Below are positions 8,952 through 56,513 of a DNA stretch of 64,000 bases, piece by piece; the first letter of the stretch is position 1; the number at the start of each line of letters is the position of its first letter. Below the pieces are notes generated by a model, which was not told the DNA's origin, searched no databases, and saw only the letters and a list, made by a program, of their open reading frames with translations. This DNA comes from Stegostoma tigrinum (lineage: Eukaryota). Where the stretch lies: positions 24,299,440 through 24,363,439 of the forward strand of contig NC_081371.1 of assembly GCF_030684315.1 (NCBI RefSeq), in the 5' to 3' direction. A program made the position numbers and the translations under genes.

Positions 8952-9092
8952 GAGATAGTAGGAACTGCGGATGCTGGAGAGTCCGAGATAACGAAGTGTG
9001 GAGCTGGATGGACACAGGAGGCCAAGTAGCATTACTGCTCCTAAGATGCTGCTTGGCCTGCTGTGTTCATCCAGCTCCACACTTTGTTATCT
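8952..9092. mobile_element. Miniature hairpin PLE derivative
   Basis: Same inverted PLE termini as 8221-8359, with the tail on the left arm. Confidence 0.85.
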
Positions 9093-19367: not shown

Positions 19368-19536
19368 TGCGTATGGGTCAACATGTGCTGCCGAAGATCC
19401 TGTCGCCGCATGAACATTTTCTCACAATAATCACATTTCAAGTTCTTCTCTCCTGTGTGGATTATCATGTGAGAGGCCAGGTGAGCCTTCTGAGTGAAAG
19501 ACTTGTCACACATTTCACACCGATAGTTTTTTTGAC
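19368..19536 (-). CDS. PRDM4: PRDM4 coding exon (two C2H2 fingers)
   Basis: GQKNYRCEMCDKSFTQKAHLASHMIIHTGEKNLKCDYCEKMFMRRQDLRQHMLTHTQ; AG/GT flanks; 169 nt. Confidence 0.95.
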
Positions 19537-20929
19537 CTGAAAGCAAATGTAAGCATATACACATATTTTTAAAAAATGGGCCAATTCACTGCTTTGCATC
19601 AATATTACTGCTACAATTACTATTCTTATGTCGAAACACCCAGTGTTGTAATGAAGGTAGTTCCAGGATTTTGACCTGTTACAAGCAACAAGTTCTTTTC
19701 TCCCTGTCTAGTCTGTCCAGATATTTTACAATTTTGAAAACTTCTATCACATTTCCCCTAAGCCTTCACCTCTCTAAGGAATACCAAATTCTAGTCCCAA
19801 ATTCTCCAAACTTTCCTCAAAGAAAATGTCACACCCCAGAAACATTCTCATTCACCTCTCTTGTAGTCTTACCGACGCATTCACATCCTATAATATGGCA
19901 CCCAGAACTCTACACAGTATCTATTCAGTGTCCTATAAAAGTTTATTTTCACTTCCTTGCTCTTTCATTCTATGCCTCGGTAAGGAACTGCAAAATACTA
20001 TATACTTTAACAGCTCTATCTGTTCTGTCACCTTTAATGACTTGCCCAGGTCTGTCTCTTCTTGTACATCCTTTAGAATAGCACCTTTTTGTTTATACTA
20101 TCATTTTGCATTTCTTTACAATGAACATCATGTTAAACCTATCTGTCAGCTCCATCAACTTGTCAATGTCATTTAGATGTCAGTTTTGGAATATTTCTCC
20201 AAAGTACTCTGTAGCAGATAACTCCTCCCCGAAATCTCATTCCGTGCTCCAAACACCACCTTCCCCCCCCCAACTTCTTTGCCTTGAGGCAATCTCTCTC
20301 CCGTGTCACCTCTTCCACCCCGCTCCTCCCTCTACATAGCCTCTCCCTTGTAACCTCTTTTCGCCAGCCTTAACGAGTCAGAGATCAGGCAGAGTGCTGC
20401 CTCACAATCTCACTGTTCCCTAATCTAGTTATGACTATTTCGCTTCTACACTTGCTGCTGTAAAGCTCTGTAGGCAAATGAGAGAGAAACAGCCCATGTT
20501 TAAATGAGCAGCTCCTTGCAGAATCTGTCACTCTCCTTACAGGACACATATCTTGAATTCTAGTTCACCAGCGTGATAGAAATTGAGGCCTTATGTATTG
20601 GATGACCCTTGTCCAGCCTGGTGAATACAACTGCTTTATTACAACTTCATTATTTAGCATCTGAGTCCCAGCTATATTCTGTCTCAATTACAGAAAGTGG
20701 GTTTATATTTTGCCTGAGAAAATTCAGATTCTTCCAAGCAATGGAGTGTCAGCGACTGGGGCCACAAATTAAATTCCATAGCTTTGCGAAGTACAGGACT
20801 TCTTTTAAGTAATAAAGTAGATAAAATATACTTATTAATCTTTTGTGCTCTTATTGCTCTATTAACATGGAAGGTTACGGCAAAAAGTGCTTAATGTATT
20901 GGAAATACAACTTCTGAAGAGGATAGGGG

Positions 20930-22366
20930 TTGGTGAGGAGCTTGAAGACTGGAGTGTGGCTAATGCAGTGCCTTTACTTAAGAAAGGTGGTAAAGAAAAG
21001 CCAGGGAACTAGAAAATTGAGCCTAACATCAGTGGTGGGTACATTGTTGGAGGTGATTCTGAGGGACAAGATTCAAATGCATTTGGAAAGGCAAGATATG
21101 ATTAGGGATAGTCAACATGTCTTTGTGCATGGGAATTTGCATCTCACTAACTTGACTGAGTTTTTTGGAGCGATGACAAGGGATTGATTAAGGCAGACTG
21201 ATGGAACTTTTCTATATGGATTTAAGCAAGGCATTTGACATGGTTCAACATGATAGACTGGTTAGCAAGGTTAGATCACATAGCGACCGGGGGAGTTAGC
21301 CAATTGTATATGAAATTCGCCTAAAGGTAGGAGACATATTGTGTGCTGGTAGAGGATTGTTTTTAGGACTAGAGGCCTGTGCCAGCAGTGTGCTGCAACA
21401 ATCAATGCTGGGTCCACTGCTTTTCATCATTTATATGAATGATTTGGATGGTAATATAGGAGGTATTGTTAGTAAGTTTGCAGATGGCACCAAAATTATT
21501 GGTAACTGTGGGCAGTGAAGAAGGTTATCTCAACGTTCAATGGGATCTTGATCAGATGGGCCAATGCGCTGAGGAGTGGCAGATGGAGTTTAATTTAGAT
21601 AAATGTGAGGTGTTGTATTTTGATAAGGCAAATCAGGTCAGGACTTATACAGTTAATAGTAGGGCCCTGGGGAGTGTTGCCGAACAGAAACCTAGAGGTG
21701 CAGGTGCACAGTTCCTTGAAAGTGGAGTTGCAGGTAGACAGGATGAAGAAGGCGACACTTGGCATGCTTGCCTTCATTGGCCACTGCATTGATTACAGGA
21801 GCTGGGACGTCATGTTGAAACTGTTCAGGATATTGTGAAGCCATTTTAGAATATAGTATTCAATTATGGTCTCCTGCTATAGGAAAAATATTGTTAAACT
21901 TAAAAGGGATCACAAAAGATTTACAAGCATGTTGCCAGGATCAAAGAATTTGAACTATATGGACAGGTTGAATAGGCTGAGGCTATTTTCCTTGGAGTGC
22001 TGGAAACTGAGGGGTGACCTTAGAGAGATTTATAAAATCATTAGGGTATGGATAGGGCGAATAGCCCTAAGTCTTTTTCCCAGGGTAAAGGAGTTCAAAA
22101 CTATGGGGTATAGGTTTAATGTGAGACGGGCAAGATTTAAAAGGGACCTGAGGGCCAACGTTTTCACACAGAGGGTCGTGTGTGTCTGGAATGAGCTGCC
22201 AGAGGTGGTGATGGAGGCAAGTACAATTATAAAATTTAAAAGGCGTCTGGATGGTGCATGAATAGGAATGGTTTAGATGGAAATAAGCCAAATGGTGACA
22301 AATGGGACTAGATCAGATGAGAATATCCAGTCGGCATGGAGGAGTTGAACCGACGGATCCATTTCC
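20930..22366 (+). mobile_element. CR1 LINE RT and 3' end
   Basis: SLTSVVGTLLE, LTNLTEFF, WQMEFNLDKCEVL, FTQRVVCVWNELP motifs with frameshifts. Confidence 0.92.
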
Positions 22367-25300
22367 ATAAGACCATAAGACATAGGAGTGGAAGTAAGGC
22401 CATTCGGCCTATCAAGTCCACTCTGCCATTTAAATCATGGCTGATGGGCATTTCAACTCCACTTCCCTGCACTCTCCCCGTAGCCCTTAATTCCTTGTGA
22501 GATCAAGAATTTGTCGATCTCTGCTTTGAAGGCATCTAACGTCCCAGCCTCCACTGCACTCTGTGGCAATCAATTCCACAAGCCCACCACTCTCTGGCTG
22601 AAGAAATGTCGTCTTATTTCCGTTTTAAATTTACCCCCTCTAATTTTAAGGCTGTGCCCACGGGTCCTAGTCTCCCCGCCTAACAGAAACAACTTCCCAC
22701 CCCTTCTAAGCTATACATTATTTGGTAAGTTTCTATTAGATCTCCCCTCAACCTTCTAAACTCTAATGAGTACAATCCCAGGATCCTTAGCCATTCATCA
22801 TACGTTAAACCTACCATTCCAGGGATCATCCGTGTGAATCTCCGCTGCACAGGCTCCAGGGCTAGTATGTTCTTCCTGAGGTGTGGGGCCCAAAATTGGA
22901 CACAGTATTCTAAATGGGGCCTAACTAGAGCTTTATAAAGTCTCAGAAGCACATCGCTGCTTTTATATTCCAACCCTCTTGAGATAAATGACAACATTAC
23001 ATTCGCTTTCTTAATCACAGACTCTACCTGCAAGTTAACTTTTAGAGAATCCTGGACCAACACTCCCAGATCCTTTTGTACTTCTGCTTTACGAATTTTC
23101 TCACCATTTAGAAAATAGTCCATGCCTGTATTCTTTTTTCCTAAGTGCAAAACCTCACATTTGCCACATTGAATTTCATCAGCCATTTCCTGGACCACTC
23201 TCCTAAATTGTCTAAATCTTTCTGCAGCTTCCCCACCTCCTCAGTACGACCTGCCTGTCCACCTATCTTCGTATCATCAGCAAACTTCGCCAGAATGCCC
23301 CCAGTCCCTTCATCCAGATCATTAATATATAAGGTGAACAGCTGCGGCCCCAACACTGAACCCTGCGTCACCAATCGTCACCGGTTGCCATTCCGAAAAA
23401 GAGCCTTTTATCCCAACTCTCTGCCTTCTGTCAGACAGCCAATCCTCAATCCAAGCCAGTAGCTCACCTCGAACACCATGGGCCCTCACCTTGCTCAGCA
23501 GCATCCCGTGAGGCACCGTATCAAAGGTCTTTTGGAAGTCTAGATAGATAACATGTACTGGGTTTCCCTGGTCTAACCTACTTGTTACCTCTTCAAAGAA
23601 TTCTAACAGGTTTGTCAGGCATGACCTCCTCTTATTAAATCCATGCTGACTTGTTCTAATCTGACCCTGCACTTCCAGGAATTTAGAAATCTCATCCTTA
23701 ACAATGGATTCTAGAATTTTACCAACAACCGAGGTTAGGCTAATCGGCCTATAATTTTCCATCTTTTGTCTTGATCCTTTCTTAAACAAGGGGTTACAAC
23801 AGCAATTTTCCAATCATCTGGGACTTTCCCTGACTCCAGTGACTTTTGAAAGATCACAACCAAAGCCTCCACTATTTCCTCAGCCTCCTCCCTCAGAACT
23901 CTAGGATGTAGCCCATCCGGGCCAGGAGGTTTATCAATTTTTAGACCTTTTAGCTTTTCTAGCACTTTCTCTTTTGTAATGCCTACCATACTCAACTCTG
24001 CCCCCTGACTCTCCCTAATTGTTGGCATACTACTCATGTCTTCCACTGTGAAGACTGACGCAAAGTACTTATTAAGTTCTTCAGCTATTTCCTTATCTCC
24101 TATCACTAGCCTTCCAGCATCAATTTGGAGCAACCCAATGTCTACTTTTGCCTCTCGTTTGTTTCTAATGTATTGAAAGAAGCTTTTACTATCATTTCTA
24201 ATATTACTAGCTAGCCTACCTTCATATTTGATCCTCTCCTTCCTTATTTCTGTCTTTGTTATCCTCTGTTTGTTTTTGTAGCCTGCCCAATCTTCTGATT
24301 TTCCAGTGCTCTTGGCCACTTTATAGGCTGTCTCTTTTTCTTTGATATATTTCCTGACTTCCATTGTCGGCCATGGCTGTCTAATCCCACCCCGGATAAT
24401 GTTTCTTTTCTTTGGGATGAACCTCTGTACTGTGTCCTCAATTATACCTAGAAACTCCTGCCATTGTTGCTCTACTGTCTTCCCCGCTAGGCTCTGCTTC
24501 CAGTCGATTTGTCAATTCCTCTCTCATGCCCCTGTAATTACCTTTATTTAACTGTAACACCATTACATCTGATTTTGCCTTCTCTCTTTCAAACTGCAGA
24601 CTGAACTCTACCATATTATGATCGCTGCCTCCTAAGTGTTCCCTTACTTTATGAAGTCTGGCTCATTACATAGCACTAAGTCCAGAATAGCCTGCTCACT
24701 TGTGGGCTCCATCACAAGCTGTTCCAAAAAGCCATCCTGCAAACATTCCATGAATTCCCTTTCTTTGGATTCACCAGCAACATTATTCACCCAGTCCACC
24801 TGCATACTGAAGTCCCCCATGATCACCGTGACCTTGCCTTTCTGACATGCCCTATCTATTTCCCGGTGCTTCTTGCGCCCCTGGTCCTGATCACTGTTAG
24901 GAGGTCAGTACATAACTCCCATTATGGTTTTTTTTTGCCTTTGTGATTCCTCAACTCCACCCACACAGTCTCCACATCCTCTGACCCTATGTCATTCAGT
25001 GCCGTAGATTTAATTTCATTCTTAACTAACAAGGCAACCCCGCCACCTCTGCCCACCTCCCTGTCTTTTCGATATGCTGTGAATCCTTGGATGTTTATCT
25101 GCCAGCCCTGAACTCCTTGCATCCCTCTGTGATGCATACCACATCATAATCATTCAAGAGGATTTGTGCTGTTAATTCATCTACGTTGTTGCGAATTCTA
25201 TGAGCATTTAGATAAAGTGCCTTAATGCTAACTTTCTTATTATTAGAGAGATTGGAAATCCTAAAATGTCTTAAACTACCCTCCCTTTTTGCTGTATTCC

Positions 25301-25830
25301 TAGTCTGCCTCGCGCTTAAACCCACCTGTACACATGCTATCCTGTTGCTTATCTTTCCATTTAACTCCATACTCCCTGTCTCTTTCACTTTCCCTTCTGC
25401 CCGACTCAGAAGTTTAAAGTCCTACTGACCACCCTATTTATCCTTTTCGCTAGAACACTGGTTCCAGATCGGTTCAGGTGGAGACCGTCCCAACGGTACA
25501 GATCCCCCCCCGGTTCCAAAACTGATGCTAATGCCCCATGAAATGGAATTCCTCTTTCCCACACCAATCCCTTAGCCACATGTTTACTTTCTGAACTTTT
25601 TCTTCCCCCTATGCCAATTAGCACGTGGTTTAGGTAGTAATCGGGAGATTATGACCCTTGAGGACCTGTACTTCAATTCTTTCCTAGTGCTTGATAATCC
25701 CTGAACAGGCCCTCTACCCCCAGCTTTGCCTATGTTGTTAGTCCCAACGTGGACCACAACAACTGGATCCTCCCCCTCCCACTCCAATGTCCTTTCAAGC
25801 CGGTCGGAGATGTCCCGCACCCTGGCACCG
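22367..25830 (-). mobile_element. Long, relatively young CR1 LINE (ORF1 esterase, APE endonuclease, RT, 3' repeat tail)
   Basis: GARVRDI..VHVGTNN and DGLHLN (SGNH esterase); LYLNA..VCITE and IMGDF (APE); NYRPISLTS, QGSVLGP, KFADDTK (RT); terminal (ccataaga) repeats at 22366-22381; frameshifted. Confidence 0.95.
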
Positions 25831-25910
25831 TACTCCATACTGTATAACTACCACTCTCTGATATGCTGCTCAGAGCTAAAGTTCGCAAAAGCTGAATATG
25901 GTAAGCTTAC

Positions 25911-26177
25911 CCGTGTGAATTTTGAGGTGAGTTCGGAGATTGCTGGGGTCACTGAATGCCTTGCTGCAGAACTCACACTTGTGTGGTTTCATCCCCATGT
26001 GTCCCATCATGTGAACATTTAGTTTGGTAGAAGAGGTGAACGCTCTTGGACAGATGGAACATTTCCATTTCCTTTCCCGACTCTGCCCATGACTGCTCAA
26101 ATGTGACTTCAGCTCACTGTACGTACTGTATGCCTTGCCACAGTGACACATGTGCACATCTGGATGCTCTGGAACTC
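25911..26177 (-). CDS. PRDM4: PRDM4 coding exon (atypical first finger and two C2H2 fingers)
   Basis: GVPEHPDVHMCHCGK...ERKWKCSICPRAFTSSTKLNVHMMGHMGMKPHKCEFCSKAFSDPSNLRTHLKIHTG; AG/GT flanks; 267 nt. Confidence 0.95.
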
Positions 26178-26289
26178 CTTAAAAAAAAATACATGCACAA
26201 AGATACACATTCCATTCTTCAAAAGGTCATTTGGTGCATATCAAGGTCTGAAACAGAGCTATAGATGCAATGAATGTTTCTGTAACAAT

Positions 26290-27100
26290 ACATAAGAAAT
26301 AGCAGCAGTTGTAGGTCTCTTGGCCCCTTCTGGTCTTACTGAATGGTAGGACAGACTCATCTGATCACACTGTACTCTGCACTTGCTGCCTAAAACCCCT
26401 CCCCATGCCCCAGTTCTCTTTACTCCCTTATAGATAAAAATCTATCAAACTCAGTCTTCAATCATATTCAATTATTCAGTCTCCACAACTCTCTGGAGTA
26501 AGAACTGTGAAAGTTAAACATGCTCTGAGAAAAAATATCTTTATCATTTTGACTGGAAGCCTTGGCATATTTAAATCTGAATCCTGTTTCTAGATTTCTT
26601 CCAAAAGTCATCCTCTCAGCATTTAGTACTCAGAAATGTTTAACCCTCAGAACCTTTTTATTTCAAAAAGCTCACCTTTCATTCTTCAATAGCCTAATGA
26701 GTTTATATCACATGGTCAACATTTCCTTGAAGGAAAACACTAATTCCAGTAATCAACTAAGCAAATTTTCTCTGAATTGTCTCCACTGAAGTAGACTCCT
26801 CAAGTAAGGAGACGAAAAGTGCAGGCAGTACTCTCGGTGTGGTTTCACCAGTGCCCAGTACAGTTTAGCAAGACTTTGCTACTTCCATGCTTCATCCCCT
26901 CACAGAGGCCAAGGTTTTATTTCCCTTCCTAGTGACTTGCTGCAAGCTGCATGTTGACTTTTTGTCATTCATATACAATGACACCCAGATCGCTATGGAA
27001 TTCTGCAGTCTATTTTCATTTAATTAATATTCTACTCTTACATCTCTTTCTACTAGAGCAGCAATCCTCAGATTATCCTTAATTATACTCATTTGCTGAA
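26290..27100 (-). mobile_element. Degraded CR1 3' fragment
   Basis: cataagaaatagcagcag terminus and cagtactctcggtgtggtttcaccagtgccc (reverse of LVKPHREYC). Confidence 0.7.
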
Positions 27101-27705
27101 TTTTAGAGAAAAAAGAGAAAGAAAATAACTTTTTTACTCTTACTACTACCTTAAATTACAGAAGAGAAAGGTAACAACTCCAGTACCAATCCCTCATTGC
27201 ACACATATCTGAACTTCGTGAGGTAGTCGAGTACATAAAACAGGAATTTCTATACAGCAGCATACATTTTCACAAGTGACAAACAAACAGCTTTATAACT
27301 CAAATAGACATTTCAAAGAGAATTAGAATTTTTGAAGACATAATGTCAGTTTTTAATTCTGAGAAATGTCAAACTGTTTTGCTGCATGCAATGAAGGTCA
27401 GTAGTCAGTAACAAATATCGACATAATCACATTTCAGGTTTTGCAATGCTAGCTAAATTGAATTCCTCACTTTTGTATAAATTGAGACAGAAAATAACAA
27501 TTAACAAATTTAGAAGAAAGAGCACACGACGGTAAATATTTTAAACATATAAGTCGAGCCCACACTTTTTCAGTCTTTAGTCTAGACACTTTGATAAACA
27601 ACCTCTGGTTTTCACTCAGATTTTTGAGTAGGAACACAGCAAAAATATAGCTGTTAACTCCCCGATCACTTGCTTTCTGGATATCCAAGTATATAACCAT
27701 ATACT

Positions 27706-27898
27706 GAGATAATGGGGACTGCAGATGCTGGAGAATCCAAGATAACAAAGTGTGAAGCTGGATGAACGCAGCAGGCCAAGCCGCATCGTAGGAGCACAAA
27801 AGCTGACATTTCGGGCCTAGACCCTTTCCGTCGGCTTTTGTGCTCCCAAGATGCTGCTTGGCCTGCTGTGTTCATCCAGCCCCACACTTTGTTATCTT
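27706..27898. mobile_element. Miniature hairpin PLE derivative
   Basis: Left arm tail+terminus to tttcgggcctagaccct; right arm restarts at cgtcggcttttgtgctcc and ends ttatct. Confidence 0.85.
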
Positions 27899-28276
27899 CC
27901 ATAGGGCTCTTGTGGCCTATGTCCTTGCACCTGAGCCAAGTAAGGCCGGTTCAAGCCCCACCTACTCCAGAGGCATGTAATACCATCTCTGAACAAGTAG
28001 ATTGGAAAATGTCTACAACCACGTTCCATGTAATCCACATTCTACTGGTCTGAGAAGCCTAATAAGGGATCAAATGGAGAGATTTCAGCCTTGTCATAGA
28101 GCAAGTAATAAAAACTTACATTTAAACATGTTATCAAAACTCAGTTTAGGTTGGTATAACCTGATATTAAATAGCTACAGAAATTTTTGAAGTCTGGTCC
28201 CTGTTTCTTAAATTATCCAGAGTAATTAACTAAATTTAAAACAAAGTAATGGTAAGACTGACTGAGTACAACTTAC

Positions 28277-28404
28277 CAAGTTGCCTTGCATAGTCCCTGG
28301 TATAGTAAAAGAGTAGCTCATGGTTAGGAGGAATCTCTTTGGATGTACAGAAATAAATCTTCCCATTGTGAGGATAGGCTACTAGGTTTTGTTCTTCCCG
28401 TGTT
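28277..28404 (-). CDS. PRDM4: PRDM4 coding exon (PR/SET C-terminal part)
   Basis: TREEQNLVAYPHNGKIYFCTSKEIPPNHELLFYYTRDYARQL; AG/GT flanks; 128 nt. Confidence 0.95.
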
Positions 28405-29380
28405 CTACAGGAGACGTAATAATTGTTACAGACTTAAATATTTTAAGTTTTTAAAATCCCTCCAAAATCACCATTACATATTTCTGGGTTTTCATCACAA
28501 TGGCAGAATAAGCAGGCATTATTTTTCAACCTTTTAAGTAGCACTTCAGCAGGAGATGTGATACTGAAAGAAACCCAAGACGTGGAAACAAGTTGAAACC
28601 AACTTAATCAAACAGGTTTCCAATTAATTAATCCTTTGAAGAATGGACGTATATGGTTGCAAAACCCAAAACACAACATGTACTGTTAGATGTGCTTCTG
28701 TGATTGGGCACCACTTGCTGAATAATTATGAGTATACTTGGTCAAGCTCCTAATGTGGATCGTTTACACTCATTAGAAGCAACATATAAAGTCATACACC
28801 AGGAGTTATTCTCTGTAAACAAAAGGAATATCTTCTAGCTTTGCAACTTTTTTCAATTACCCACAAGCTTGGAAGCATATATTGCTGGTTTCTTCCTAGC
28901 AATGTCTTGGCCAATCAGAAGTGACTTAGTCAGTTACATTTTCTTCCGATGCATATTTTTGAGATCATTTGAAATTTGGCATTTTGGCATTTGCCCTTCC
29001 GAGTGCAGTACAAAAAGCTTCAGCATCATATCTCTTTTCACAGCAAAATTATCTATTAATTGTAATGTTTGTGGGACTTTGTGTTGCCCACATTTCACCC
29101 ATTCGGTGATAGTGAAAAGTGCAATATAATTCAAAGTCTTTTTTCTTAAAGACATCAATCAAGTTTATGGATGTTATCCCAGACCACCTAAAGACGCCAC
29201 TTCCATTAAAAAAATTCTGCGCAAAGAACATTCAGAATGGAACATTTTCTTTGTTAAATATAATTTAAGTAGATCAGCAAGAATTGTTAAACTGAGTTTT
29301 GCACAAGCAAGCTGTAGCCTGCTGTCAGTATTTTATCTTCTGTGAAATCTGCATTGCATATATCCTTACAATTGACTCAC

Positions 29381-29466
29381 CTAGCTCTGTGTACAAACAT
29401 CATCCAGTTACAGATGTTCTCATCTGCGGTCACTATCAGAAATTCCAAAACATAATTGCAAAATAT
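29381..29466 (-). CDS. PRDM4: PRDM4 coding exon (PR/SET)
   Basis: IFCNYVLEFLIVTADENICNWMMFVHRAR; AG/GT flanks; 86 nt. Confidence 0.95.
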
Positions 29467-30609
29467 CTAGATTAAAAAAAAACACATTTAGATAACATGG
29501 TTAAAATACTTTGGGACTGTAACAGGAAATAGGTACAGGGGACTTGAAAATGTTAAGAGGAAATTAGTCTACCTCAGATTCATAAAATATACAGTATTGC
29601 AATTCTGAAATTGCCAAAGGACATTACAATATCTATACTGAGATAGATATCTGTAGGTGAGGACCATTCAGTCCACCAATCGCATCTTTGTCCAGATGTT
29701 TACGATTCCCTAAACTTTTAAAATTCCTCCAACTCATCACATTTAAGTGTACAGTTTTTCACACCAGACCATTCTAGAATCACTATCAAATAGTTCCAGA
29801 CATTAAGCTTTATTTCATTTTCTGCCAGTTGCACTCAAATCTCCAACCAGATCATCACTACTTTCTGTATTACATTAAAAAAAAACTTGCAGATTCCTCC
29901 TCCATCTCTTGCCCAAAACAATCAATCAGTCTATAACCCCAAGTCTCTGATTTGGATTAAAATGTCCAATTCCATTTATTATTTTATACAGTTCCATTTG
30001 ACTCACTCATATTTCCTTTCAAGGAGTGTAATAATATTTTCAGACACCCTCTGTCCTCTGGGATTACCTCTGCTGCCCCTTTATTGTTTCCCAGGTGCCT
30101 CAGTTCATGAGATGACTGTAGTGCTCAGTTGGTTTGACAACGGCACGACAGATCTTCAAGTGCCTCAGACTGCATTCTGCTCATCTGCCAACAGATTTCA
30201 GCATTTTATGAGCTCGGTAAACACAGCTCTACAATGAGTCAAATCAGATACGTTGGGTCAATTAGCACCCTGATCTCTCTGATTTTTTATCCTAGCTCAT
30301 TTAGGGAATGTGCAAGATATAGTATGTGTGCACGTGCCTTGCCTAACTTAGTATCGAGATCACATGTCAAACAATTGTGTCTATTACTTATTACATTTCT
30401 GAATCATATATTCAACTCGTTACAACTGCATTTCTAATTAGTTGCGTATCACAGTGGCTAATACATCACACAAGACTCTGTTGGACAAGTTATTGTGTAC
30501 CTTTCCATTCGCCCGACACCTTCCACCGTCTTACAACATTATAGAGTTAAAATAATATTAAAAGTGAAGTACAAGGTTTGAGTTTATGATATATTTCAGT
30601 CATACTAAC

Positions 30610-30728
30610 CTTCCAGATATTAGTGTTACTTTTGTTCGTCCAATCAGCGACTTGCAATAAGTTAATCTCTTCTCCAATCAAAGGTCCAAAACAGGTGCGC
30701 ATAGGAATTGATTCTTGACTCCACACAC
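30610..30728 (-). CDS. PRDM4: PRDM4 coding exon (PR/SET N-terminal part)
   Basis: GVWSQESIPMRTCFGPLIGEEINLLQVADWTNKSNTNIWK; AG/GT flanks; 119 nt. Confidence 0.95.
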
Positions 30729-30751
30729 CTGCCAAAGATCAGACCAATGAA

Positions 30752-31694
30752 TGGGGCTGGGGCAGAGTCCACAGACTGACCCAGTGACTGAGGCCGGGGC
30801 AGAGTCCACAGACTGACCCAGTGACTGGGGCCGGGGCAGAGTCCACAGACTGACCCAGTGACTGGGGCCGGGGCAGAGTCCACAGACTGACCCAGTGACT
30901 GGGGCCGGGGCAGAGTCCACAGACTGACCCAGTGACTGAGGCCGGGGCAGAGTCCACAGACTGACCCAGTGACTGAGGCCGGGGCAGAGTCCACAGACTG
31001 ACCCAGTGACTGGGGCCGGGGCAGAGTCCACAGACTGACCCAGTGACTGGGGCCGGGGCAGAGTCCACAGACTGACCCAGTGACTGGGGCCGGGGCAGAG
31101 TCCACAGACTGACCCAGTGACTGGGGCCGGGGCAGAGTCCACAGACTGACCCAGTGACTGGGGCCGGGGCAGAGTCCACAGACTGACCCAGTGACTGAGG
31201 CCGGGGCAGAGTCCACAGACTGACCCAGTGACTGGGGCCGGGGCAGAGTCCACAGACTGACCCAGTGACTGGGGCCGGGGCAGAGTCCACAGACTGACCC
31301 AGTGACTGGGGCCGGGGCAGAGTCCACAGACTGACCCAGTGACTGAGGCCGGGGCAGAGTCCACAGACTGACCCAGTGACTGAGGCCGGGGCAGAGTCCA
31401 CAGACTGACCCAGTGACTGAGGCCGGGGCAGAGTCCACAGACTGACCCAGTGACTGAGGCCGGGGCAGAGTCCACAGACTGACCCAGTGACTGAGGCCGG
31501 GGCAGAGTCCACAGACTGACCCAGTGACTGAGGCCGGGGCAGAGTCCACAGACTGACCCAGTGACTGGGGCCGGGGCAGAGTCCACAGACTGACCCAGTG
31601 ACTGGGGCCGGGGCAGAGTCCACAGACTGACCCAGTGACTGAGGCTGGGGCAGAGTCCACAGACTGACCCAGTGACTGAGGCTGGGGCAGAGTC
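30752..31694. repeat. 37-bp minisatellite, ~25 copies
   Basis: Unit ggggcagagtccacagactgacccagtgactg(a/g)ggcc repeated head to tail with essentially one variable site. Confidence 0.98.
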
Positions 31695-32459
31695 AAAGAA
31701 GAAACCCAGTGAGTTTGGCTGAAGCAGTCAGAGTCAACGGATGCATTTGGTGGGGCAAATTGAATGATCAAACATTATTAGTGCTGCCAGGAGGTTTTTC
31801 TAATTCCATTAGGGCAGGCGCAGGCTGGCTTGTTGAAAAGGCTACAGGACTAGGAGGCAGCACCAATTAAGTCAGTGGATGCTTGGAATAGCACAAATTA
31901 GCCATGTACAGGGCAGGGCAAAGGGAAGGAACAGCTAGGATTGGGTCATTTAGATGTGAGTGCCATTTAATTGGCTCTGGAGAGGAGTAATTAATTTGGA
32001 ACATTAAAGGGGGTACAAAAAGCATTTGTGGTGCTGCAGTAGTGTCCTTATTTTGGACCAGGAGCCCTAGGTTTAAATTCCACGTGCTCCAGAATATTTT
32101 TAACAGCATATCTGAATAGGTTGATTAGAAAATATCTATAAAGAGGCTACACTGGGTTTAGGACATGTCAGAGGTGGCTAAAGAAGTTACATATTAAAGC
32201 TATGCTATATGAAGGACCTCCATTAAAACTACAGAAAAATGCATCATGCCTTCTTAAAATATGCAAGGATAGAAACACATTGCAGGAAATTAAAAGCACA
32301 GCAGAAAGTTACAGATTAATTCCACCATAGCCAACGCAATGAATTTTCAGTCTGAACTGTACCAGAAATTTCAGAGGTTCTCAAAACAGTCCTTAAGATC
32401 ATAACTTCCCGTTTATAAATGGGTACAACATATAATGAGATGAAAGCGTATCTGCATAC

Positions 32460-32609
32460 CAACATCTTCTCCTGTGATAGACTGTCTGAGGCTTAGCTGT
32501 TTTGGAATTGACAGTCTAGCTCGGCTGCTGACTGGTGTATCCAGTATGAAAGTTACTGCTCCATGTTCAGGACAGTCAGCAGGATAAGCACGGTCACATA
32601 GAGTACACC
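32460..32609 (-). CDS. PRDM4: PRDM4 coding exon (PR zinc knuckle)
   Basis: WCTLCDRAYPADCPEHGAVTFILDTPVSSRARLSIPKQLSLRQSITGEDV; AG/GT flanks; 150 nt. Confidence 0.95.
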
Positions 32610-33415
32610 CTGAAGGATTGTGGGAAAAAAAAATTTCTATATTAAAAGATGCACATTTTCATCAATGGCTGTTGAAGCTGCTTTTACATTAGTCTTCACC
32701 TGCCAGCTCCCAGCCCATCAAAATAAATATACCAGATTTTTAGAGCCAGTGAAAAAGCTGCACCCTGGTGGTGATAAACATGTCACACCTAGTCCAAACT
32801 TGAATAGAGTGGTGAATTCCAGAGTGTGGCCAATTTGCAGAAGGCCTGCAAAATAAGTTCAGGAGAATGGTGTAGTTAGCTGAGCCTCCTAAGATCCAGG
32901 CTATAATGTGAAAACAGTTGAAGTATTATTAGAAAATACTTTCTGCCATTGAAAATACATACCTAAACTTTAAGCAAGATTGCCATGTGATGGCAATATG
33001 AGCACTGTGACCATGAGTTGCCAGCTTCTGACACTTACTGAAACATCACTTTGCTGGTTTCTGAATTAATTACATAAACTGGCAGATTTCACATTTCTAA
33101 AAGTTGAATAAACAAATGATCAACCAATGTAAATACATCAAATTAAAATAAAATTCATGATTTCAACCACCAGTTATACAGTTGGCTGAACATTACTTTT
33201 TTGAATAAGTCTGATTTGCATCAAGTCTTTTGGAGGGATTTTTGCTGCACAGCCCAGTGGGATTTCTCACTATGTCTTATCAAACTTGCATCATTAATTA
33301 TCTACCATACCTCTCTGGCATCCCTCTCATTCAATTTTATCCCTATCTTACCACTTGCCAGAACAATTTGCCACTCTCTCGATATCTATTGAAACACCAG
33401 CATTTCTAATGCCAG

Positions 33416-33533
33416 TGATAATGGGAACTGCAGATGCTGGAGAATCCAAGATAATAAAATGTGAGGCTGGATGAACACAGCAGGCCAAGCAGCATCTCAG
33501 GAGCACAAAAGCTGACGTTTCGGGCCTAGACCC
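33416..33533 (-). mobile_element. Solo PLE terminus with TSD
   Basis: Nearly identical to 54320-54436; 11-bp TSD tctaatgccag at 33405-33415 and 33534-33544. Confidence 0.9.
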
Positions 33534-34761
33534 TCTAATGCCAGCACCACTTTAGAAGTGGACAAGCATGAAGAGTCTGGAACTGTCCTGCACAGTTACT
33601 GCCCAGATACAGCAGGCAGGGGGAAGATGGTGCTTTGCTTTTCAGTTGGGCTTGCACGCCCTGCTGGATGGGATAGTGCAGATTTGGGGTGACTTCCACC
33701 TTCATGACCAGCAAAGGAGGCCACCAGACTATACCTGCCTGGCCCGAGGTTGCCACCAAAGGCAATGCAGTATCAGCTATGTGGAGGAATGAACAGCAGT
33801 GTTGGAAGCATGTCAATGACATTCTCCGCTCAGCCTTCGTCAGTGCCATAGTCGACCCTTTGATAACTAAAACGTACCATCTTTGCTTCTTACCTAGCTC
33901 CCATCAAAGCTCATGCTGCACCACTCTCACTATTTCCTGCAACATCTTCCCTCACCTGCTGTCACCTACATTCCCTTTAATACCACTGCTGCTGCTATTT
34001 GGACTTCCTTGGTCTGACACTACAACATATTGCATGGCCCCTGCACTGCTGACTCATTCACTCAGGACACTTTCCCATCAAAAATAGGAGCTGTGCCTCC
34101 ATCTTTCATTTCAGGAGGAAAGCAAGTCCCAATGGGGCAAAGAATCATGGTGGGTGGTGGGCTGCCCAACATTCAGCTTTTTACCTTTGACTGTGACTGA
34201 CTGGCTGACTGACCATGTCTAAATCCCTAGACTGATAATGGATCGTGACCTTGACTTAGTGTACCACGACCCCTGAGTGGTGCACCATGACCCCTGAGTG
34301 CAGGTTATCTTCCCTGCTTTAACTGCTGATAACCATGACAAACTTCCTGGTTTTGTGTCTGTGCTCAACATCAAGACAAGGCAGGGATGCTGGGAGCAAC
34401 CAAGTAGGCTTGGAGTAAAGAGACACATTGACAGCAAGCAAATAGCCCAGAGATACGCCTGGTCCAGTATGGTACTGATCCATAATTGCACAGCATTCTT
34501 GCAGCAACATTACTGTGCTAGTTGCTGATGCAGCCTCAAATCAACCCTAGACTTTCTGACTTAGAGGCAAAATTGATTGCAGGTTGCAATTGCAAGCAGA
34601 CATTAGAAAGTGGCTCAAATTAACTGTTTCACTCTTCTTTTATCTATAAATCCTTGGAGAACATCAGCTTGGCAATGTGTTAACAAAAAAATGACATTTT
34701 CGTCTTCAGAACAGAAGCTTCATTCTATAAACACTAACGTTAATGAACAAACATTACTTAC

Positions 34762-35559
34762 AAATTGTAAAGGAATCTGCCAGATTCTCTTTATTGGAGC
34801 TGGAATCCTCCATTTGTAGAGATCCTGACACAAATGAAAGGTTTTCTGAAGACCCATCAACTTGATTAGTCCTCATGGAGACCTCTGTTGTAACAGTGGA
34901 AACAGAGACTCTGTCCAGTCCCACACTGGATCCATGAAGAGACACTGGCTCAAGTGAAGGCAGGGAGTGAGAAGATGAAAGTGCTACTCCTACAGGATTG
35001 GAGTTTATTGTAGCAGCATGGATGGAGTCACTCAAAGAATTCTCTGGTATATTGTTTACCCGACCAGTTATTGGTTCTGGTTCCATGACAACTGGTAACT
35101 CTATTGCGCTGGCATGAATTGGAATTATTGTATTCTGCCCTACTACTGCCTCTGCTTCCAAATTATTTCCCACAGAGTCCACAGTTATTGTTTCATGGTT
35201 TCTGGAGCCAGAGGACAATGCCTGTGGCTTTCCTGTTACACCATTCATAGTCAAATCTTCACTCATTCCTTCTGTCGAGATGGGACTGTTAACTCGAGAA
35301 ACTGTTTCCATGGAGATGTTAGCATTTAGTGGGACCTCCTGGTTGTTGCTCTGATGCAGATTCTGGGAATTGTGAGTGCCTACTTGTCTCGTGTCTATGG
35401 AAACGATGCTTGACTCCAAGCCCACAGCACCATTAGGTTCATAATGATCAAGGGTAGGTGGGTTGCTAGAAACAGGCAGTGCAGGGCTTCCATCCACACT
35501 GATAGCACTGGAATGGATGTACTGGGGAGGTGGTCTGTCAGCCAAGTAAGACAAAATAC
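34762..35559 (-). CDS. PRDM4: PRDM4 large coding exon (Ser/Pro-rich N-terminal region)
   Basis: GILSYLADRPPPQYIH...MEDSSSNKENLADSFTI; acceptor ttgctgtag|, donor |gtaagt; 798 nt. Confidence 0.95.
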
Positions 35560-35890
35560 CTACAGCAAATAACAAATCAAATTAGTGACTAAGTAATAAA
35601 CATTTATTGCATATCGAAATAGTATACTTCATTTCGATGCAACGTTCAAGAAAGGTAAAAGTACAACAGAATGGGGAGAGGTAACACCACTTTGTGGGCA
35701 GGAACAGGGTTTTTCATATCAGAATATGAATATCCAAAGTGACAACAGCCTGATTTTTTTTTGTTGTTAAATTGCCCAAAAGTTAGGCAAGTATTGAAGG
35801 AATGCATAGTACATTTTTGGCAATATGCTTAGAAGTTTAGAAGAAAGCAAACACTAAAAAGTTCCCTTATGTTGTTAGGTCTTTTCTTAC

Positions 35891-36189: not shown

Positions 36190-36755
36190 TACAAACACAG
36201 GGATTGCTGGAAAAACTCAGCGGTCTTAATTACTTCTTCATAACTGAAATTTTGGAAGTATTTTTATACTTTTGACAGATTAGAGGCAAAGGAGAAGCAA
36301 GAGGAAGACGGTGGTGAGACCTAGTGCAAAAGAGGAAGGTGTTGTTAATGATGTTTATGATGAAGAGATTTAAAATGGGTGTGAAAGAGAGAGAATGGGT
36401 TCTCCTACCATGTACAAAATAGACCAGACACAAAGAACAAAAGGCTTCGGGACAATGGGGACAGACATAATGCAGTCACTTTCTGAAGTTATGAAATTCA
36501 AAGTCAAAACATTAAGGCTATAAAGTGTCTAAGCAGTAAAATGAAGTGTTGTTCCTCGAACTTGTGTTCTACCTGGTTGGAAATTTGCAGCCAGCCCAGG
36601 TCAGAAATGTTAGTATGATAACAAGGTGTTTTATTGAAATGGCAAGCAACTGGAAGGTCTAGGTCATCCCTACAGACAAAAGGGAGGTGCTCCACAAAGC
36701 AGTCACACAGTCTGCATTTGGTCTCACCAATATAAAAGAAATTACATTGTAAGCA
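36190..36755 (-). mobile_element. Degraded PLE GIY-YIG fragment
   Basis: CNFFYIGETKCRLCDCFVEHL...LPVACHF...EEQHFI. Confidence 0.85.
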
Positions 36756-37444
36756 GAATATTGTAAGCAGTAGGCTTCTGTCCCTCCCAATAACCATCAC
36801 AAACACTATTGTGTATGATAGATGCACACTGTGATTGTGCATTAAGGACGCACTCTACATGGTTTTGATAGAAAATAAGGTGAAATCACAGAATTGGATC
36901 TTAAAATACCAGCAAAGCTGCTAAACACAATGTTGCAGAAAATAATTTGGCATGTTCAGTTATGGCATCCCTGATTATGATTTTACAGTAAAGAATTACA
37001 TGCAGTAGTGTGAATTTGCATGAATGTTTCAGCAATTAGCGGACACTGAAATCACAGACAGCAAAGCATCTAGTTACAATGCATCAAAACCTGATAAATC
37101 TTGAAACCTGAGAAAATCAAATTACCTACCAGTATCTGGCTGAGTCTTCTACGGCTGTTCAAATGTACTTTATTGTTCAATTACCACTTATTCTAATCAC
37201 CTAACCATAACTTAGTCTGTCCTCTTACTCCTCTGGCACTGTCACTTTGTTTAGAATCTCCCCTTCCACTTTTGTTTCTTCTTTAATATCCTGTTTCTCT
37301 ACTGCCCACTGTCAAGTGCCTTTCCTCCACCCAGCTTTCCACTCAGCTACAGTATCAAACAATAAATTGCAATCTTATATGTGCGTAGCAAAGATAAATA
37401 AATCTTTTCTCTTCACAGTCATCCATCTGATATAGGGAAGGTCA

Positions 37445-41034: not shown

Positions 41035-41708
41035 CTGTGAAAAGCAAGAGAATATTAAAGTAAAGACAAAGCATGAACCTCAGAGTACAGTTTTAAAGGG
41101 TCTTGCAGTTCTATGGTTGTATCCCTACCTCTGTGACATGACGCCCAGGTTCAAGTTCGACCTGTTCAGAGGTATGCAATTAAATCTCTGAATAGCTTGA
41201 TTAGAAATTTGTTTTTACACTACTCTTGCCCAGTTACAACATAAACCACAAAAAGTACATCGCCTATCTACACCATCCCTCACGAATCCCACCTCATTAC
41301 TAACAGAGGCACAGACCTAACCAGAATACAGTTCTGCAGCCTCAATGCAGTATCAATACAAACCCATCTTACAATCGAGTTCAAGTATCAGTGTAGATAC
41401 TCTCAGTATACATCATGCTTACTAATTACAAATGCAATCAGCACACATACATCAACAAAACCCATGGAATACCCACAGGTACCTCGTGAGATTGCAGAAA
41501 CAAACTGTAAGGCTACACCCACCAATCTATTAACAGATACAGATCTTTTACCACACGTTTTTAGTCCGTGGAACATACAAATGTTGTGCAGATGTTGCAC
41601 GTCCTGCTTAAAAATTGGCACATTTATGATAGCCAATTAGCTTTATTAGACGTGGCCTGTGCCAACTGGGTATAACACTTGCCTAGGACCTGGTGCAAGC
41701 TTGAGCTA

Positions 41709-41904
41709 GGCACACAGTGGGTGCAGGGACTGGCTGGGTACACAGTGGGTACAGAGACAGACCAGGTGCACAGTGGGTGCAAGGACTGGTCAGGCACACA
41801 GTTGGTGTAGGGACTTGCCAGGAACTGGGTAGGTGCAGGGCCTGGGTGGGCACACGGTGGGGGCAAGGGCAGGCCAGGCATAGGGTCGGTGCAGGGCCTG
41901 GCTG
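41709..41904. repeat. Degenerate 28-bp G-rich minisatellite, 7 copies
   Basis: Units such as ggcacacagtgggtgcagggactggctg / ggtacacagtgggtacagagacagacca keep exact 28-bp spacing. Confidence 0.85.
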
Positions 41905-52160: not shown

Positions 52161-54414
52161 GCCCAGACCTTCCAGAATCAGAGGCCAGATATGCCCTGAA
52201 ACCTTTTTAAAATCCTACTGTATTGATGACAAGGGAATTGTTCAGGAAGTTTTAACTTTCAATGGGCAATTATCCTGCATCCACAACCGTCTGAAAAACT
52301 TCCAACTCTGAGCTAAAGATGGAGACTTCAGAGGTCCTGACCTACTTAATTGATATTAGAGTAGAGCAGCTGAAGATATGGATTTTCAGAGTTAAAAGAG
52401 AGCCCGTTATTGAAAACAAGAAGAAATCAAACAACTACGGTATGCAGCTTTGAATTACTGGCTGAATAAAAAGGTCTGTATATTTGCCTACTGTGTTCAA
52501 AGAATTAAAACCAGTTCTGGCTTCCATGCAGCTATACTATTCACCAGACCCCTCCAATTGCCCACCGACCCCCTCACTAATGCTCTACTCATACCCTCTG
52601 ACTCTCTGCATACCCTCTGCATCCCTCCCAATTACTCTCCTGATACTGTCTCTGAATTCAATTGTCTGTTCTGTTCAACTACCCTGAAGCACTCACTCTG
52701 ACATTACTGAAAACCCCAACTCATGTATGCTGAGGCTTACTAATTACTGCTGTACTTATTTCATAGTTTTGCCACTGAGCATGGAAAACAAAATCCAATA
52801 CTGTCTCCTTTATCTTCCACAACAGCAGGAAATTACAGTTGCAAACTCAACCCGCTTGATCCTGCAAAGTTCTCCTTACTAACATCTAGGACTGGTTTCA
52901 ACATTGGGAAAGCTATCTCACAGACTGTTCAAGCAACAGTCAGGCATTGTCATAATCATGGTATCATACCTTACAGTCAATGCCTAAACATCAAGAATAA
53001 CACCACCATCCTTGGGTAGATCCTGCCTCAATGCCTGGATAGAACCACAGTGTTTTAAATTTAGGAAGGAGTTCAGAGTTTTCAAATTGTCTTTATACCC
53101 CAAGACGTTTCATTGCATCAGGTCAACCATGGTCAAGAAAGCCATCTGCTGATTACCATGTGCTGATCTTACTCTGTTGATGAATCAGTACTCCTCCATG
53201 TGGAACACTGCTTGGAGGAAGCTCTGAGGATGCAAGGGTGCAAAATGTACTATCGGTGGAGTACTTCAACATCTATCACCAAGAGTGGATCAACTGCAGA
53301 ACTACTGGTTGTATCTGTGAGACTGGGTCTGCAGCAGGTGGTGAGGGAACCAACAAGAGGGAAAAATATACTTGACCTCAATCTTACCAATCTGCTGGCT
53401 GCAGATGCATCTGTTTGTGACAGTATTGGTAAGAGTGACCATTGCACAGTCCTTGAGGAGTCATAGTATCAATCATGGTTTAGTGGAGAGTGCAGGAGGT
53501 CTTGCCAGAAGCAGAAGAACGAGGGCTATGTAAAAATGAGATGTCAAGCTTGTGAAGTTACCAAACACAATTACTTGCATGCCAAACAACCAAAGCAGAA
53601 AACTGTAGACAGAGCTATGCGATCCCACTGCCAAAGGATCGGATCTGAATTCTACAGGCCGTTACATCCAGTCATAAACGGCTGTGCACATCAACAACTG
53701 ACTGGTAGGTGGGAGGAGGGTGTGGTTTGCGGTAGCAGGACAGGCTCCACAAATGTCCCCATCCTCAATGATGAGGGAGGCATCAAGGCTGCATTTGACT
53801 GCCTTTGACTAAAAGGAACAAAAAGCAGAAACTACTGGGAATATTCAGGAAGGTCTGGTAGCATCTGTGCAGACAGAAAAAAAGCAAGTTAATTTTTTGA
53901 GTCCAAGGGTCACTGGACTTGTAGCATTAGCTCTGTTTTTCTCTCCACAGATACTACCATACTTGCTGACTTTCTCCAGCACTTGCTATTTTTTGTTTCA
54001 GATCTCCAGTAAACATAGTTTGTTTTACATTAGCATTTGGAGCCCTAGCAAAACTGGAGTTAATGGGAATTGGGTGAGGAGAGATGCTCTTCATTAGTTG
54101 GGATTATAGCTGACACAAAGGAAGATGGTTGTTGTTGGAGGTCAGTCATCTGAACTCTAGGATATTTTTGCAGGAGTTCCACAGACAGTGTCATCTGTAG
54201 TAGTGTCCTAGCCTCAACCATGTTCAACATCTTCATCAATGACTTTCCTTTTCTCATAAGGTCTGAAGTGCGGCAGAAAGCACATGTATCCAAATGCAGC
54301 AAACTGGATAATATCCAGGGATAATGGGAACTGCAGATGCTGGAGATTCCAAGATAATAAAATGTGAGGCTGGATGAACACAGCAGGCCAAGCAGCATCT
54401 CAGGAGCACAAAAG

Positions 54415-54446
54415 CTGACGTTTCGGGCCTAGACCCTTCATCAGAG
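54415..54446 (-). ncRNA. Minimal type I hammerhead ribozyme motif (left arm)
   Basis: Reverse complement reads ct-CUGAUGA-a-gggucuaggccc-GAAA-cgUC-ag. Confidence 0.75.
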
Positions 54447-56340
54447 AGAGGATGGGGGGAGGGAACTGGAATAAATAGGGAGAGAGGGGGAGGCGGACCG
54501 AAGATGGAGAGTAAAGAAGATAGGTGGAGAAGGTGTGGGTGGGGAGGTAGGGAGGGGATAGGTCAGTCCAGGGAAGACGGACAGGTCAAGGAGGTGGGAT
54601 GAGGTTAGTAGGTAGCTGGGGGTGCGGCTTGGGGTGGGAGGAAGGGATGGGTGAGAGGAAGAACCGGTTAGGGAGGCAGAGACAGGTTGGACTGGTTTTG
54701 GGATGCAGTGGGTGGGGGGGAAGAGCTGGGCTGGTTGTGTGGTGCAGTGGGGGGAGGGGATGAACTGGGCTGGTTTAGGGATGCAGTGGGGGAAGGGGAG
54801 ATTTTGAAACTGGTGAAGTCCACATTGATACCATATGGCTGCAGGGTTCCCAGGCGGAATATGAGTTGCTGTTCCTGCAACCTTCGGGTGGCATCATTGT
54901 GGCAGTGCAGGAGGCCCATGATGGACATGTCATCAAGAGAATGGGAGGGGGAGTGGAAATGGTTTGCGACTGGGAGGTGCAGTTGTTTGTTGCGAACTGA
55001 GCGGAGGTGTTCTGCAAAGCGGTCCCCAAGCCTCTGCTTGGTTTCCCCAATGTAGAGAAAGCCGCACCGGGTACAGTGGATGCAGTATACCACATTGGCA
55101 GATGTGCAGGTGAACCTCTGCTTAATGTGGAATGTCATCTTGGGGCCTGGGATGGGGGTGAGGGAGGAGGTGTGGGGACAAGTGTAGCATTTCCTGCGGT
55201 TGCAGGGGAAGGTGCCGGGTGTGGTGGGGTTGGAGGGCAGTGTGGAGCGAACAAGGGAGTCACGGAGAGAGTGGTCTCTCCGGAAAGCAGACAGGGGTGG
55301 GGATGGAAAAATGTCTTGGGTGGTGGGGTCGGATTGTAAATGGCGGAAGTGTCGGAGGATAATGCGTTGTATCCGGAGGTTGGTAGGGTGGACACCACCC
55401 TACCAACCTCCGGATACAACGCATTATCCTCCGACACTTCCGCCATTTACAATCCGACCCCACCACCCAAGACATTTTTCCATTCCCACCCCTGTCTGCT
55501 TTCCGGAGAGACCACTCTCTCCGTGACTCCCTTGTTCGCTCCACACTGCCCTCCAACCCCACCACACCCGGCACCTTCCCCTGCAACCGCAGGAAATGAT
55601 ACACTTGTCCCCACACCTCCTCCCTCACCCCCATCCCAGGCCCCAAGATGACATTCCACATTAAGCAGAGGTTCACCTGCACATCTGCCAATGTGGTATA
55701 CTGCATCCACTGTACCCGGTGCGGCTTTCTCTACATTGGGGAAACCAAGCGGAGGCTTGGGGACCGCTTTGCAGAACACCTCCGCTCAGTTCGCAACAAA
55801 CAACTGCACCTCCCAGTCGCAAACCATTTCCACTCCCCCTCCCATTCTCTTGATGACATGTCCATCATGGGCCTCCTGCACTGCCACAATGATGCCACCC
55901 GAAGGTTGCAGGAACAGCAACTCATATTCCGCCTGGGAACCCTGCAGCCATATGGTATCAATGTGGACTTCACCAGTTTCAAAATCTCCCCTTCCCCCAC
56001 TGCATCCCTAAACCAGCCCAGTTCATCCCCTCCCCCCACTGCACCACACAACCAGCCCAGCTCTTCCCCCCCACCCACTGCATCCCAAAACCAGTCCAAC
56101 CTGTCTCTGCCTCCCTAACCGGTTCTTCCTCTCACCCATCCCTTCCTCCCACCCCAAGCCGCACCCCCAGCTACCTACTAACCTCATCCCACCTCCTTGA
56201 CCTGTCCGTCTTCCCTGGACTGACCTATCCCCTCCCTACCTCCCCACCCACACCTTCTCCACCTATCTTCTTTACTCTCCATCTTCGGTCCGCCTCCCCC
56301 TCTCTCCCTATTTATTCCAGTTCCCTCCCCCCATCCCCCT

Positions 56341-56372
56341 CTCTGATGAAGGGTCTAGGCCCGAAACGTCAG
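56341..56372 (+). ncRNA. Minimal type I hammerhead ribozyme motif (right arm)
   Basis: CUGAUGA 56343-56349, stem II gggtctaggccc, GAAA 56363-56366, self-complementary ACGU in place of stem III, GUC triplet ending at 56370. Confidence 0.75.
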
Positions 56373-56513
56373 CTTTTGTGCTCCTGAGATGCTGCTTGGC
56401 CTGCTGTGTTCATCCAGCCTCACATTTTATTATCTTGGATAATATCCAGGCTTGGGCTGACAAGTGGCAGGTAATATTTGGGCCATACAAGTACTGGGCA
56501 GTGATAATCTCCT

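Follow-up and report, generated by a model that had tools for sequence, protein, structure and literature searches.

Within 54305..56450 of a 64,000-nucleotide stretch of Stegostoma tigrinum contig NC_081371.1 (the whole of it hereafter called the window) lies a palindrome of about 2.1 kb, built from two head-to-head copies of a Neptune-like Penelope element that meet across the three letters ACA. The palindrome is real. What is new concerns its center: ACA, described in an earlier note on this DNA as a loop, is element sequence reached without microhomology, and both strands of the target likely primed cDNA, while a single fold-back fits poorly.

Anatomy of the palindrome and its target site

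The inverted arms run from 54348 to 55391 and from 55395 to 56439 around ACA, where the earlier note had placed them, or to a net 1,040 and 1,041 nt once the TGGA that they have in common is assigned to the target site (Table 1). With a spacer of at most 10 nt, the longest perfect arm in the window is 89 nt, as opposed to 8 to 11 nt in 10 of 10 base-shuffled windows, so the palindrome is not a product of chance. The arms are 56% G+C, the flanks outside them are not mirrored, and the sense direction of the element runs outward from the center at both ends. Three substitutions and one slippage-type change separate the arms in total. A Q/R codon (55035/55751), a TGC-to-TGA change that places a stop in the right arm (55187/55599), and a 1-nt indel with a neighboring mismatch near 54449/56335-56338 had been recognized before and are confirmed, but an S/F substitution at 55302/55484 had been overlooked. 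Also, the tail on the left, previously put at 28 nt, measures 32 nt, the length found in five of the five tailed ends measured.

The two arms are framed by an exact direct repeat, TGGATAATATCCAGG. A target site duplication (TSD) of 15 bp had been claimed; because the first 4 nt of the repeat match the element too, its true length is 11 to 15 nt. The host is a LINE reverse-transcriptase remnant, presumably CR1-like, the left part of which matches another LINE remnant at window positions 7123-7190 at 77%. Its frame resumes across the insertion, as had been said, translating to LDNIQ at the left boundary and to DNIQAWADKWQV at the right one. The neighboring bHLH frame is ASCL4-like; 6,588 nt separate its stop and the left TSD, in agreement with the earlier estimate of about 6.6 kb, and the palindrome is downstream of ASCL4 on the ASCL4 sense strand. 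The zinc-finger gene is one that we take to be PRDM4.

Table 1. Features of the palindromic insertion, its host, and related insertions in the window
Feature	Position	Strand	Description
Host LINE reverse-transcriptase remnant, left part (…VLASTMFNIFINDFPFLIRSEV…LDNIQ)	54202..54319	+	frame translation
Left TSD TGGATAATATCCAGG	54305..54319	+	initial 13 nt near-palindromic (TGGATA-A-TATCCA)
One-sided tail, 32 nt	54320..54351	-	spans two family 3' end points, each ending TTATC(T)
Left arm	54352..55391	-	element 3' end, 5'-truncated, 1,040 nt
Putative minimal hammerhead motif, left copy	54417..54444	-	CUGAUGA, extra A, stem II, GAAAC-GUC; by inspection and fold
Open frame, left arm	54668..55390	-	end of RT thumb, CX4CXXC linker, GIY-YIG endonuclease with CCHH residues
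Center ACA	55392..55394	+	element sequence, part of the right arm; lacks microhomology and untemplated bases
Right arm	55395..56435	+	element 3' end, 5'-truncated, 1,041 nt; stops at internal (tail-less) end point
Endonuclease frame, right arm	55396..56118	+	interrupted by TGA at 55597-55599 inside the zinc linker
Three 39-nt tandem units, frame end	55987..56103	+	mirrored in left arm
Putative minimal hammerhead motif, right copy	56343..56370	+	by inspection and fold
Right TSD TGGATAATATCCAGG	56436..56450	+	leading TGGA also matches element past its internal end point
Host LINE remnant, right part (DNIQAWADKWQVIFGPYKY…)	56436..56513	+	frame translation
Sibling pair	8221-8358		head to head, one tail, center offset ~13 nt
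Sibling pair	8954-9093		head to head, one tail, center offset 13-18 nt
Sibling pair	18691-18866		head to head, one tail, offset 0 with 7-nt insert
Sibling pair	27708-27898		head to head, one tail, center offset 18 nt
Solo sibling copy	33417-33534		single 3' end

The view that this is a true insertion and not a read fold-back stands, as evidenced by the unmirrored flanks, the TSD, the continuous host frame, a junction contig at single-copy depth, and a contig from a relative that ends at the TSD. The junction contig comes from run X3; it is 202 nt long, spans 54132-54333 without differences, and has a depth of 19.2, against 20 to 22 in flank contigs. It enters the element by 14 nt, which is below the 31-letter bridging rule, and X3 may have been produced in the same study as the assembly. 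The relative's contig, 211 nt long and from run X8, matches 54123-54319 and stops exactly at the end of the TSD, with 14 letters left unaligned; this relative, about 5% diverged, likely has an empty site. The runs compared were 4 of the 23 listed, and three 2026 bisulfite libraries were left out; none of the runs listed is recorded as RNA. A coverage hole of run X2 near 54284 is uninformative.

The center itself is taken from the assembly, and its junction is not among the best 15 of 1,242 contig joints. An assembly artefact, either a fold-back read or a mis-join of repeat copies, would be in keeping with this, as no listed contig spans the stretch or shows the center, as the sole junction contig holds so few element letters and possibly shares its study with the assembly, and as the read comparison covers the left junction, not the right. 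Nevertheless, we consider an artefact very improbable: besides the unmirrored flanks, the exact TSD, and the continuous host frame, the right end coincides with the inner end point of the family, and each side has derived changes specific to its arm.

Element identity and family

Both arms carry the GIY-YIG/CCHH residues VVYCIHCTRCGFLYIGET, RFAEH, and VANHF, and PMC8557442 defines endonuclease-bearing Penelope-like elements by a GIY-YIG domain with CCHH, with cysteines between GIY and YIG. The PF01541 match to the arm frame, at an E value of 4.5e-4, is below the cut-off. The zinc linker reads CNRRKCYTC in the left arm and is broken by the stop in the right-arm copy; the same pattern is found in five of seven homologues. 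These seven are longer proteins, of which the best is an unnamed Stegostoma protein (94%), followed by one from Rhincodon (92%). In the latter, P0002, an RVT_1 match (E value of 9.3e-5, below the cut-off) lies upstream of GIY-YIG, and the window copy is truncated before this RT. No solved structure matches P0002. Taken by themselves, these homologues point to a carpet shark as the likely host.

By the definitions in PMC8557442, the zinc linker before the endonuclease excludes the Penelope/Poseidon clade, and a C-terminal endonuclease, with the RT upstream in homologues, excludes the Naiad/Chlamys clade. The element thus appears to be Neptune-like, a placement by domain order and linker to which Nematis would be an alternative. 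With the Neptune clade it shares the C-terminal GIY-YIG, the CCHH residues with two cysteines inside the GIY-YIG motif, and the CX2-5CxxC linker between RT and endonuclease, although the window copy is without RT. Having neither an RT nor a start codon, the copy is dead, and it has likely been accumulating point mutations as neutral DNA since, with a derived Q at residue 119 of the left-arm frame and a derived F at residue 30 of the right.

Each arm also bears a core motif of the minimal hammerhead kind expected in a terminal repeat, which makes it a candidate ribozyme. As in the metazoan minimal hammerheads described by Cervera and de la Pena (2014, PMC4209133), there is a CUGAUGA/GAAA core with an extra base after position 9, a G10.1-C11.1 pair, and a palindromic ACGU replacing helix III, whereas stem II of the putative ribozyme has 4 bp here and 7 to 8 bp in the Schistosoma motifs of that source. 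An Rfam scan of the sequence returned no hammerhead family, only two chance matches at E values of about 9.5.

The family is very large. In same-species runs, 260,470 and 370,472 contigs align to the stretch with depth concentrated on the arm, numbers that do not translate into a copy number. Loose contig ends cluster at 54352 and 54445-54448; they occur at 54352 in 630 contigs of run X3 and at 54320 in 15 contigs of run X15. Contig joints recur at 54320 and 54352, and end-to-end joints between the two 3' end points recur in same-species contigs too (54 and 51 contigs). Run X15, a small run of unrecorded kind from the same species, reaches the arm and 18 of 30 bins, leaves parts of the unique flank uncovered, and speaks neither for nor against expression. 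A 31-nt family motif had no match in contigs from metagenomes or prokaryotes; at the protein level, metagenomes yielded one locus, L001, at 33% identity.

In the window, the same or a related 3' end is present at five other places, as four short head-to-head pairs and one solo copy. Sibling arms are about 60 to 120 nt long, a TSD is recognizable in three of the five sibling insertions, and the centers differ among all five palindromes of the window. Head-to-head inverted copies with a junction palindrome, a one-sided tail, and a TSD have already been described (PMC3846280; PMC8557442). Together with the likeness of four of the five siblings, these descriptions bear out the earlier statement that Penelope-like elements often insert as inverted 5'-truncated repeats. 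They also weaken any claim that the form is unusual, as it is both published and the local norm.

Compared with the typical unit in the same two sources, the insertion shares the inverted 5'-truncated copy, the head-to-head palindrome, the 30- to 40-nt tail at one end (32 nt here), and the outer TSD (11 to 15 nt here). The junction palindromes described there are 18 and 38 bp and the TSDs 8 to 10 bp, with longer cases possible, whereas this insertion has 1-kb arms and a 3-nt center because the truncation points of its two copies nearly coincide. A literature search, mostly of titles and abstract openings and with thin coverage of subscription journals, found no account of such palindromes in sharks.

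The center and the route to a palindrome

Ordinary copies of the element show to which arm ACA belongs. In one run, X2, 53 contigs align from 55392, and their upstream consensus, ending in GTTCTCAC, translates to PLVLTHHPT, as in the homologue P0001 (PLVLTHHPTN). Because these contigs run upstream through 55392 into ordinary element, ACA is right-arm element sequence; three untemplated bases would equal the native ACA 1 time in 64. The right arm therefore extends 3 nt beyond the left at the center, and the left arm alone has a tail. With the tail on the top-strand side only and ACA templated on the bottom-strand side only, both sides contributed templated sequence. A single cDNA fold-back was rejected as the full mechanism on these grounds, since the cDNA of neither strand holds both tail and ACA, barring the same 1-in-64 chance. 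Moreover, six of the six family-variable alleles checked are common to both arms, including minority alleles at 54835 and 55064, so the arms derive from one source lineage, a point that holds under either of the two leading models.

We lean, by a little more than even chances, toward a single insertion event: cDNA synthesis would have begun from each of the two cut target strands, with the products then joined end to end. The endonuclease would nick the two strands 11 to 15 nt apart, leaving 3' overhangs. The top strand would then prime at an outer RT start site, which would yield the tail, and the bottom strand at an inner one, lying 32 nt upstream and offering a UGGA in the RNA with which the TCCA end of that strand could pair. 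Both cDNAs would end 3 nt apart, most simply at the 5' end of one broken RNA, and would be joined without microhomology, through either an end-to-end template jump or host end-joining. In support of this model, the ends of the family cluster genome-wide at the same two points, and four of the five short siblings share the head-to-head form, with a single tail per pair and a center that differs from pair to pair (offsets of 0 to about 18 nt). Against it, cDNAs stopping independently would fall within 3 nt of each other in 0.2 to 0.7% of cases under a uniform model, a coincidence rare enough that either an RNA end common to both or a coupled enzyme would have to be assumed. The native upstream consensus, moreover, comes from the 53 contigs of a single run.

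Biochemical precedent comes from a Poseidon-type protein, which cuts and extends both strands in vitro and begins reverse transcription at two neighboring RNA positions, with the tail lying between them; a dimer is predicted (PMC11167929). Its application here would be by analogy, from an element of another clade whose in vitro work left the center unreconstituted. Like the insertion described here, that element, green anole PAc (Frangieh et al. 2024, PMC11167929), has two tail-bounding RT start sites and a hammerhead motif upstream of them. Its clade is a different one, with no zinc linker, and PAc starts at sites non-homologous to the cut DNA, whereas the inner end here shares a 4-nt microhomology with the target. 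L1 twin priming (PMC11702581; 10.1101/2024.08.27.596794) likewise involves priming from both ends, an inverted segment, a TSD, and microhomology at the second primer. According to these sources, however, the second L1 primer starts where the first cDNA ends, so that the segments barely overlap; here, starts 32 nt apart would copy the same 1 kb, and a palindrome results.

A possible but distinctly less probable origin is that the bottom-strand cDNA looped on 3 nt and copied itself, and that its returning portion then paired with a short cDNA that had been primed on the other target strand and carried the tail. Matched arm lengths are better accounted for in this way, given that arms of 1 kb and of about 60 to 120 nt alike end 0 to 18 nt apart. 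The shared arm alleles would follow as well, self-priming has been put forward for such junctions (PMC3846280), and the tail-less arm is the longer one at the center in three of five palindromes. The center offers no pairing for such a turn, however, and the base preceding ACA is G where the element has C. Also, one sibling has a longer tailed arm, and another has equal arms separated by 7 nt.

Two further origins place the making of the palindrome elsewhere or later. That a palindromic master or a self-primed antisense RNA was copied whole is unlikely. Antisense self-priming is a published suggestion for head-to-head junctions (PMC3846280), and the recurrent joints between 3' end points indicate that complex arrays occur. 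But each of the five window palindromes has a different center, no joint at 55391-55392 is among the best-supported 15 of 1,242, and the 53 contigs run on there into ordinary upstream element. Even less probable is a solo insertion that was later duplicated by a replication template switch, or two insertions into one site. Solo copies do exist in this very abundant family, as at 33417-33534; yet a single TSD frames both arms, the outer ends are the two characteristic end points of the family, and each arm has sequence that the other lacks, 3 nt on the right and 32 nt on the left.

Age, stability, and meaning

The earlier note called the insertion very young. Recent it is, but both arms hold derived changes of their own relative to homologues: the Q of the left arm, a CpG transition, and the stop of the right arm stand against R and C in six of six homologues, and the right-arm F stands against S in four of six. 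The indel form of the right arm makes up about 12% and 8% of family depth, so that change may have been a standing variant or a slippage event. Across the 2,081 arm sites, three substitutions amount to 1.4e-3 per site (95% range, 0.3 to 4.2e-3). This corresponds to about 6% of the interval since divergence from the relative in run X8, which differs at 61 of 1,251 letters of the flank.

On a zebra-whale shark clock, with a dS of 0.061 to 0.111 over about 50 My (PMC13100897), the age would be 1.3 to 3 My, up to 4 My if the fourth change is counted, with a range of 0.3 to 10 My; a rate of 7e-10 (PMC10587355) gives about 2 million generations. These figures presuppose that the arms started out identical, that gene conversion did not act on them, and that RT errors were few, and they treat the arm substitutions as postinsertion. 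The 40 family variants listed, beyond which there are 321 more, include none of the three substitutions. Errors of the RT or two templates would make the age younger. If the arms were born identical, then, the insertion is estimated at about 1 to 4 My: recent, not brand-new.

The earlier note also proposed a potential cruciform or fragile site and, if the locus is transcribed, a source of hairpin RNA of about 1 kb directed against the endonuclease of the family. On a functional reading, such RNA would silence the family, or fragility at the cruciform would matter to ASCL4. Either role would be compatible with other readings of the palindrome, but we think it improbable. Long, near-identical, short-spaced arms belong to the most breakage-prone class, and an inverted Alu pair spaced by 12 bp stalls forks, as reported in PMC7999016; rotifer Penelope families yield antisense small RNAs (PMC3846280); and the locus lies downstream of ASCL4 on the sense strand of that gene. 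However, the center is intact and has no deletion scar, and the arms have had time to mutate. With the sense direction outward, a hairpin transcript would need either an antisense promoter or read-through (e.g., from ASCL4). Given the abundance of the family, a single locus would supply a small share of any double-stranded RNA. The base composition of the arms is also unlike that of AT-rich human PATRRs. A fragile palindrome of the PATRR type, for which PMC7999016 gives more than 90% A+T, was set aside in view of the G+C content of the arms.

Taken singly, the locus is minor, a dead copy among the very many of its family, in an arrangement already described; it is useful as a clean specimen, of modest mechanistic value. 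Its center and two ends argue for two-strand priming and would link the two start sites seen in vitro to the head-to-head form. If the age holds, a palindrome with 1-kb arms and a 3-nt center has lasted on the order of a million generations, a point of interest for the question of whether palindromes are generally unstable in vertebrates. More tentatively, we propose that Penelope palindromes of kilobase length and with almost no spacer may number in the thousands in carpet-shark genomes and may last for millions of years without collapse. Their centers would record separately primed cDNAs that stopped a few bases apart and were joined without microhomology. If this is true, these genomes would be a natural assay for the joining step of Penelope insertion and for an unusual tolerance of palindromes in a vertebrate germ line.

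Related copies around the main insertion

Four of the five short insertions related to the main one, the head-to-head pair of 5'-truncated Neptune-like Penelope 3' ends, are hairpins, and their centres lie within or just past the hammerhead motif. The fifth, a solo copy, carries an 11-nt TSD and matches the main insertion's element at 99% identity. Two decayed, older remnants of the GIY-YIG endonuclease retain 43-48% identity to the arm's protein. Exons of a C2H2 zinc-finger gene, presumably PRDM4 given its synteny with ASCL4, are interspersed with three of the short Penelope insertions: the solo copy and two of the hairpins. The window also holds LINE fragments and tandem repeats.

Features and recurrent joints (joints: same-species contig counts, among the joints listed)
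Feature	Position	Detail
Endonuclease remnant	5717-5952	
Short insertion	8221-8358	hairpin
Short insertion	8954-9093	hairpin
Zinc-finger gene exons	16427-35581	minus strand
Short insertion	18691-18866	hairpin
LINE reverse transcriptase fragments	21460-24511	both strands; one matches RVT_1
Short insertion	27708-27898	hairpin
Tandem repeat	30596-31857	37-nt unit; minus-strand open frames
Short insertion	33417-33534	solo copy
Endonuclease remnant	36531-36761	
28-nt repeat	41680-41903	7 copies
Joint	54320/54352	opposite strands; 54 and 51 contigs
Joint	54320/54354	opposite strands; 31 and 33 contigs
Joint	54316/54353	opposite strands; 39 and 36 contigs

Target site and possible priming

The target of the main insertion (54305-54319) is a near-palindrome, TGGATA-A-TATCCA, and contains ATTATC, the motif that closes the element. 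Judged from sequence, the bottom primer can form a 4-nt pairing with the element RNA. The top primer may likewise pair over 4 nt, including one G-U, provided that the element continues TCTG past its tail, a continuation suggested by one sibling insertion and the recurrent 54316 joint.

Joined 3' ends and short hammerhead units

Opposite-strand joints linking the family's two 3' end points recur among the joints listed for same-species contigs; among those listed for the relative's run, no end-point-to-end-point joint was found at 54316-54354. Such joints could arise where palindromic units are arrayed in tandem, where a circle has closed, or where an element has inserted into its own end.

Most loose contig ends, from up to 918 contigs, fall at 54445-54448, directly upstream of the hammerhead core. 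Head-to-tail tandems of 129 nt are also recurrent within 54320-54448 (34 and 33 contigs). Together, the loose ends and tandems suggest a large population of ~126-129-nt hammerhead-plus-tail units, which would resemble solo terminal repeats or retrozymes.
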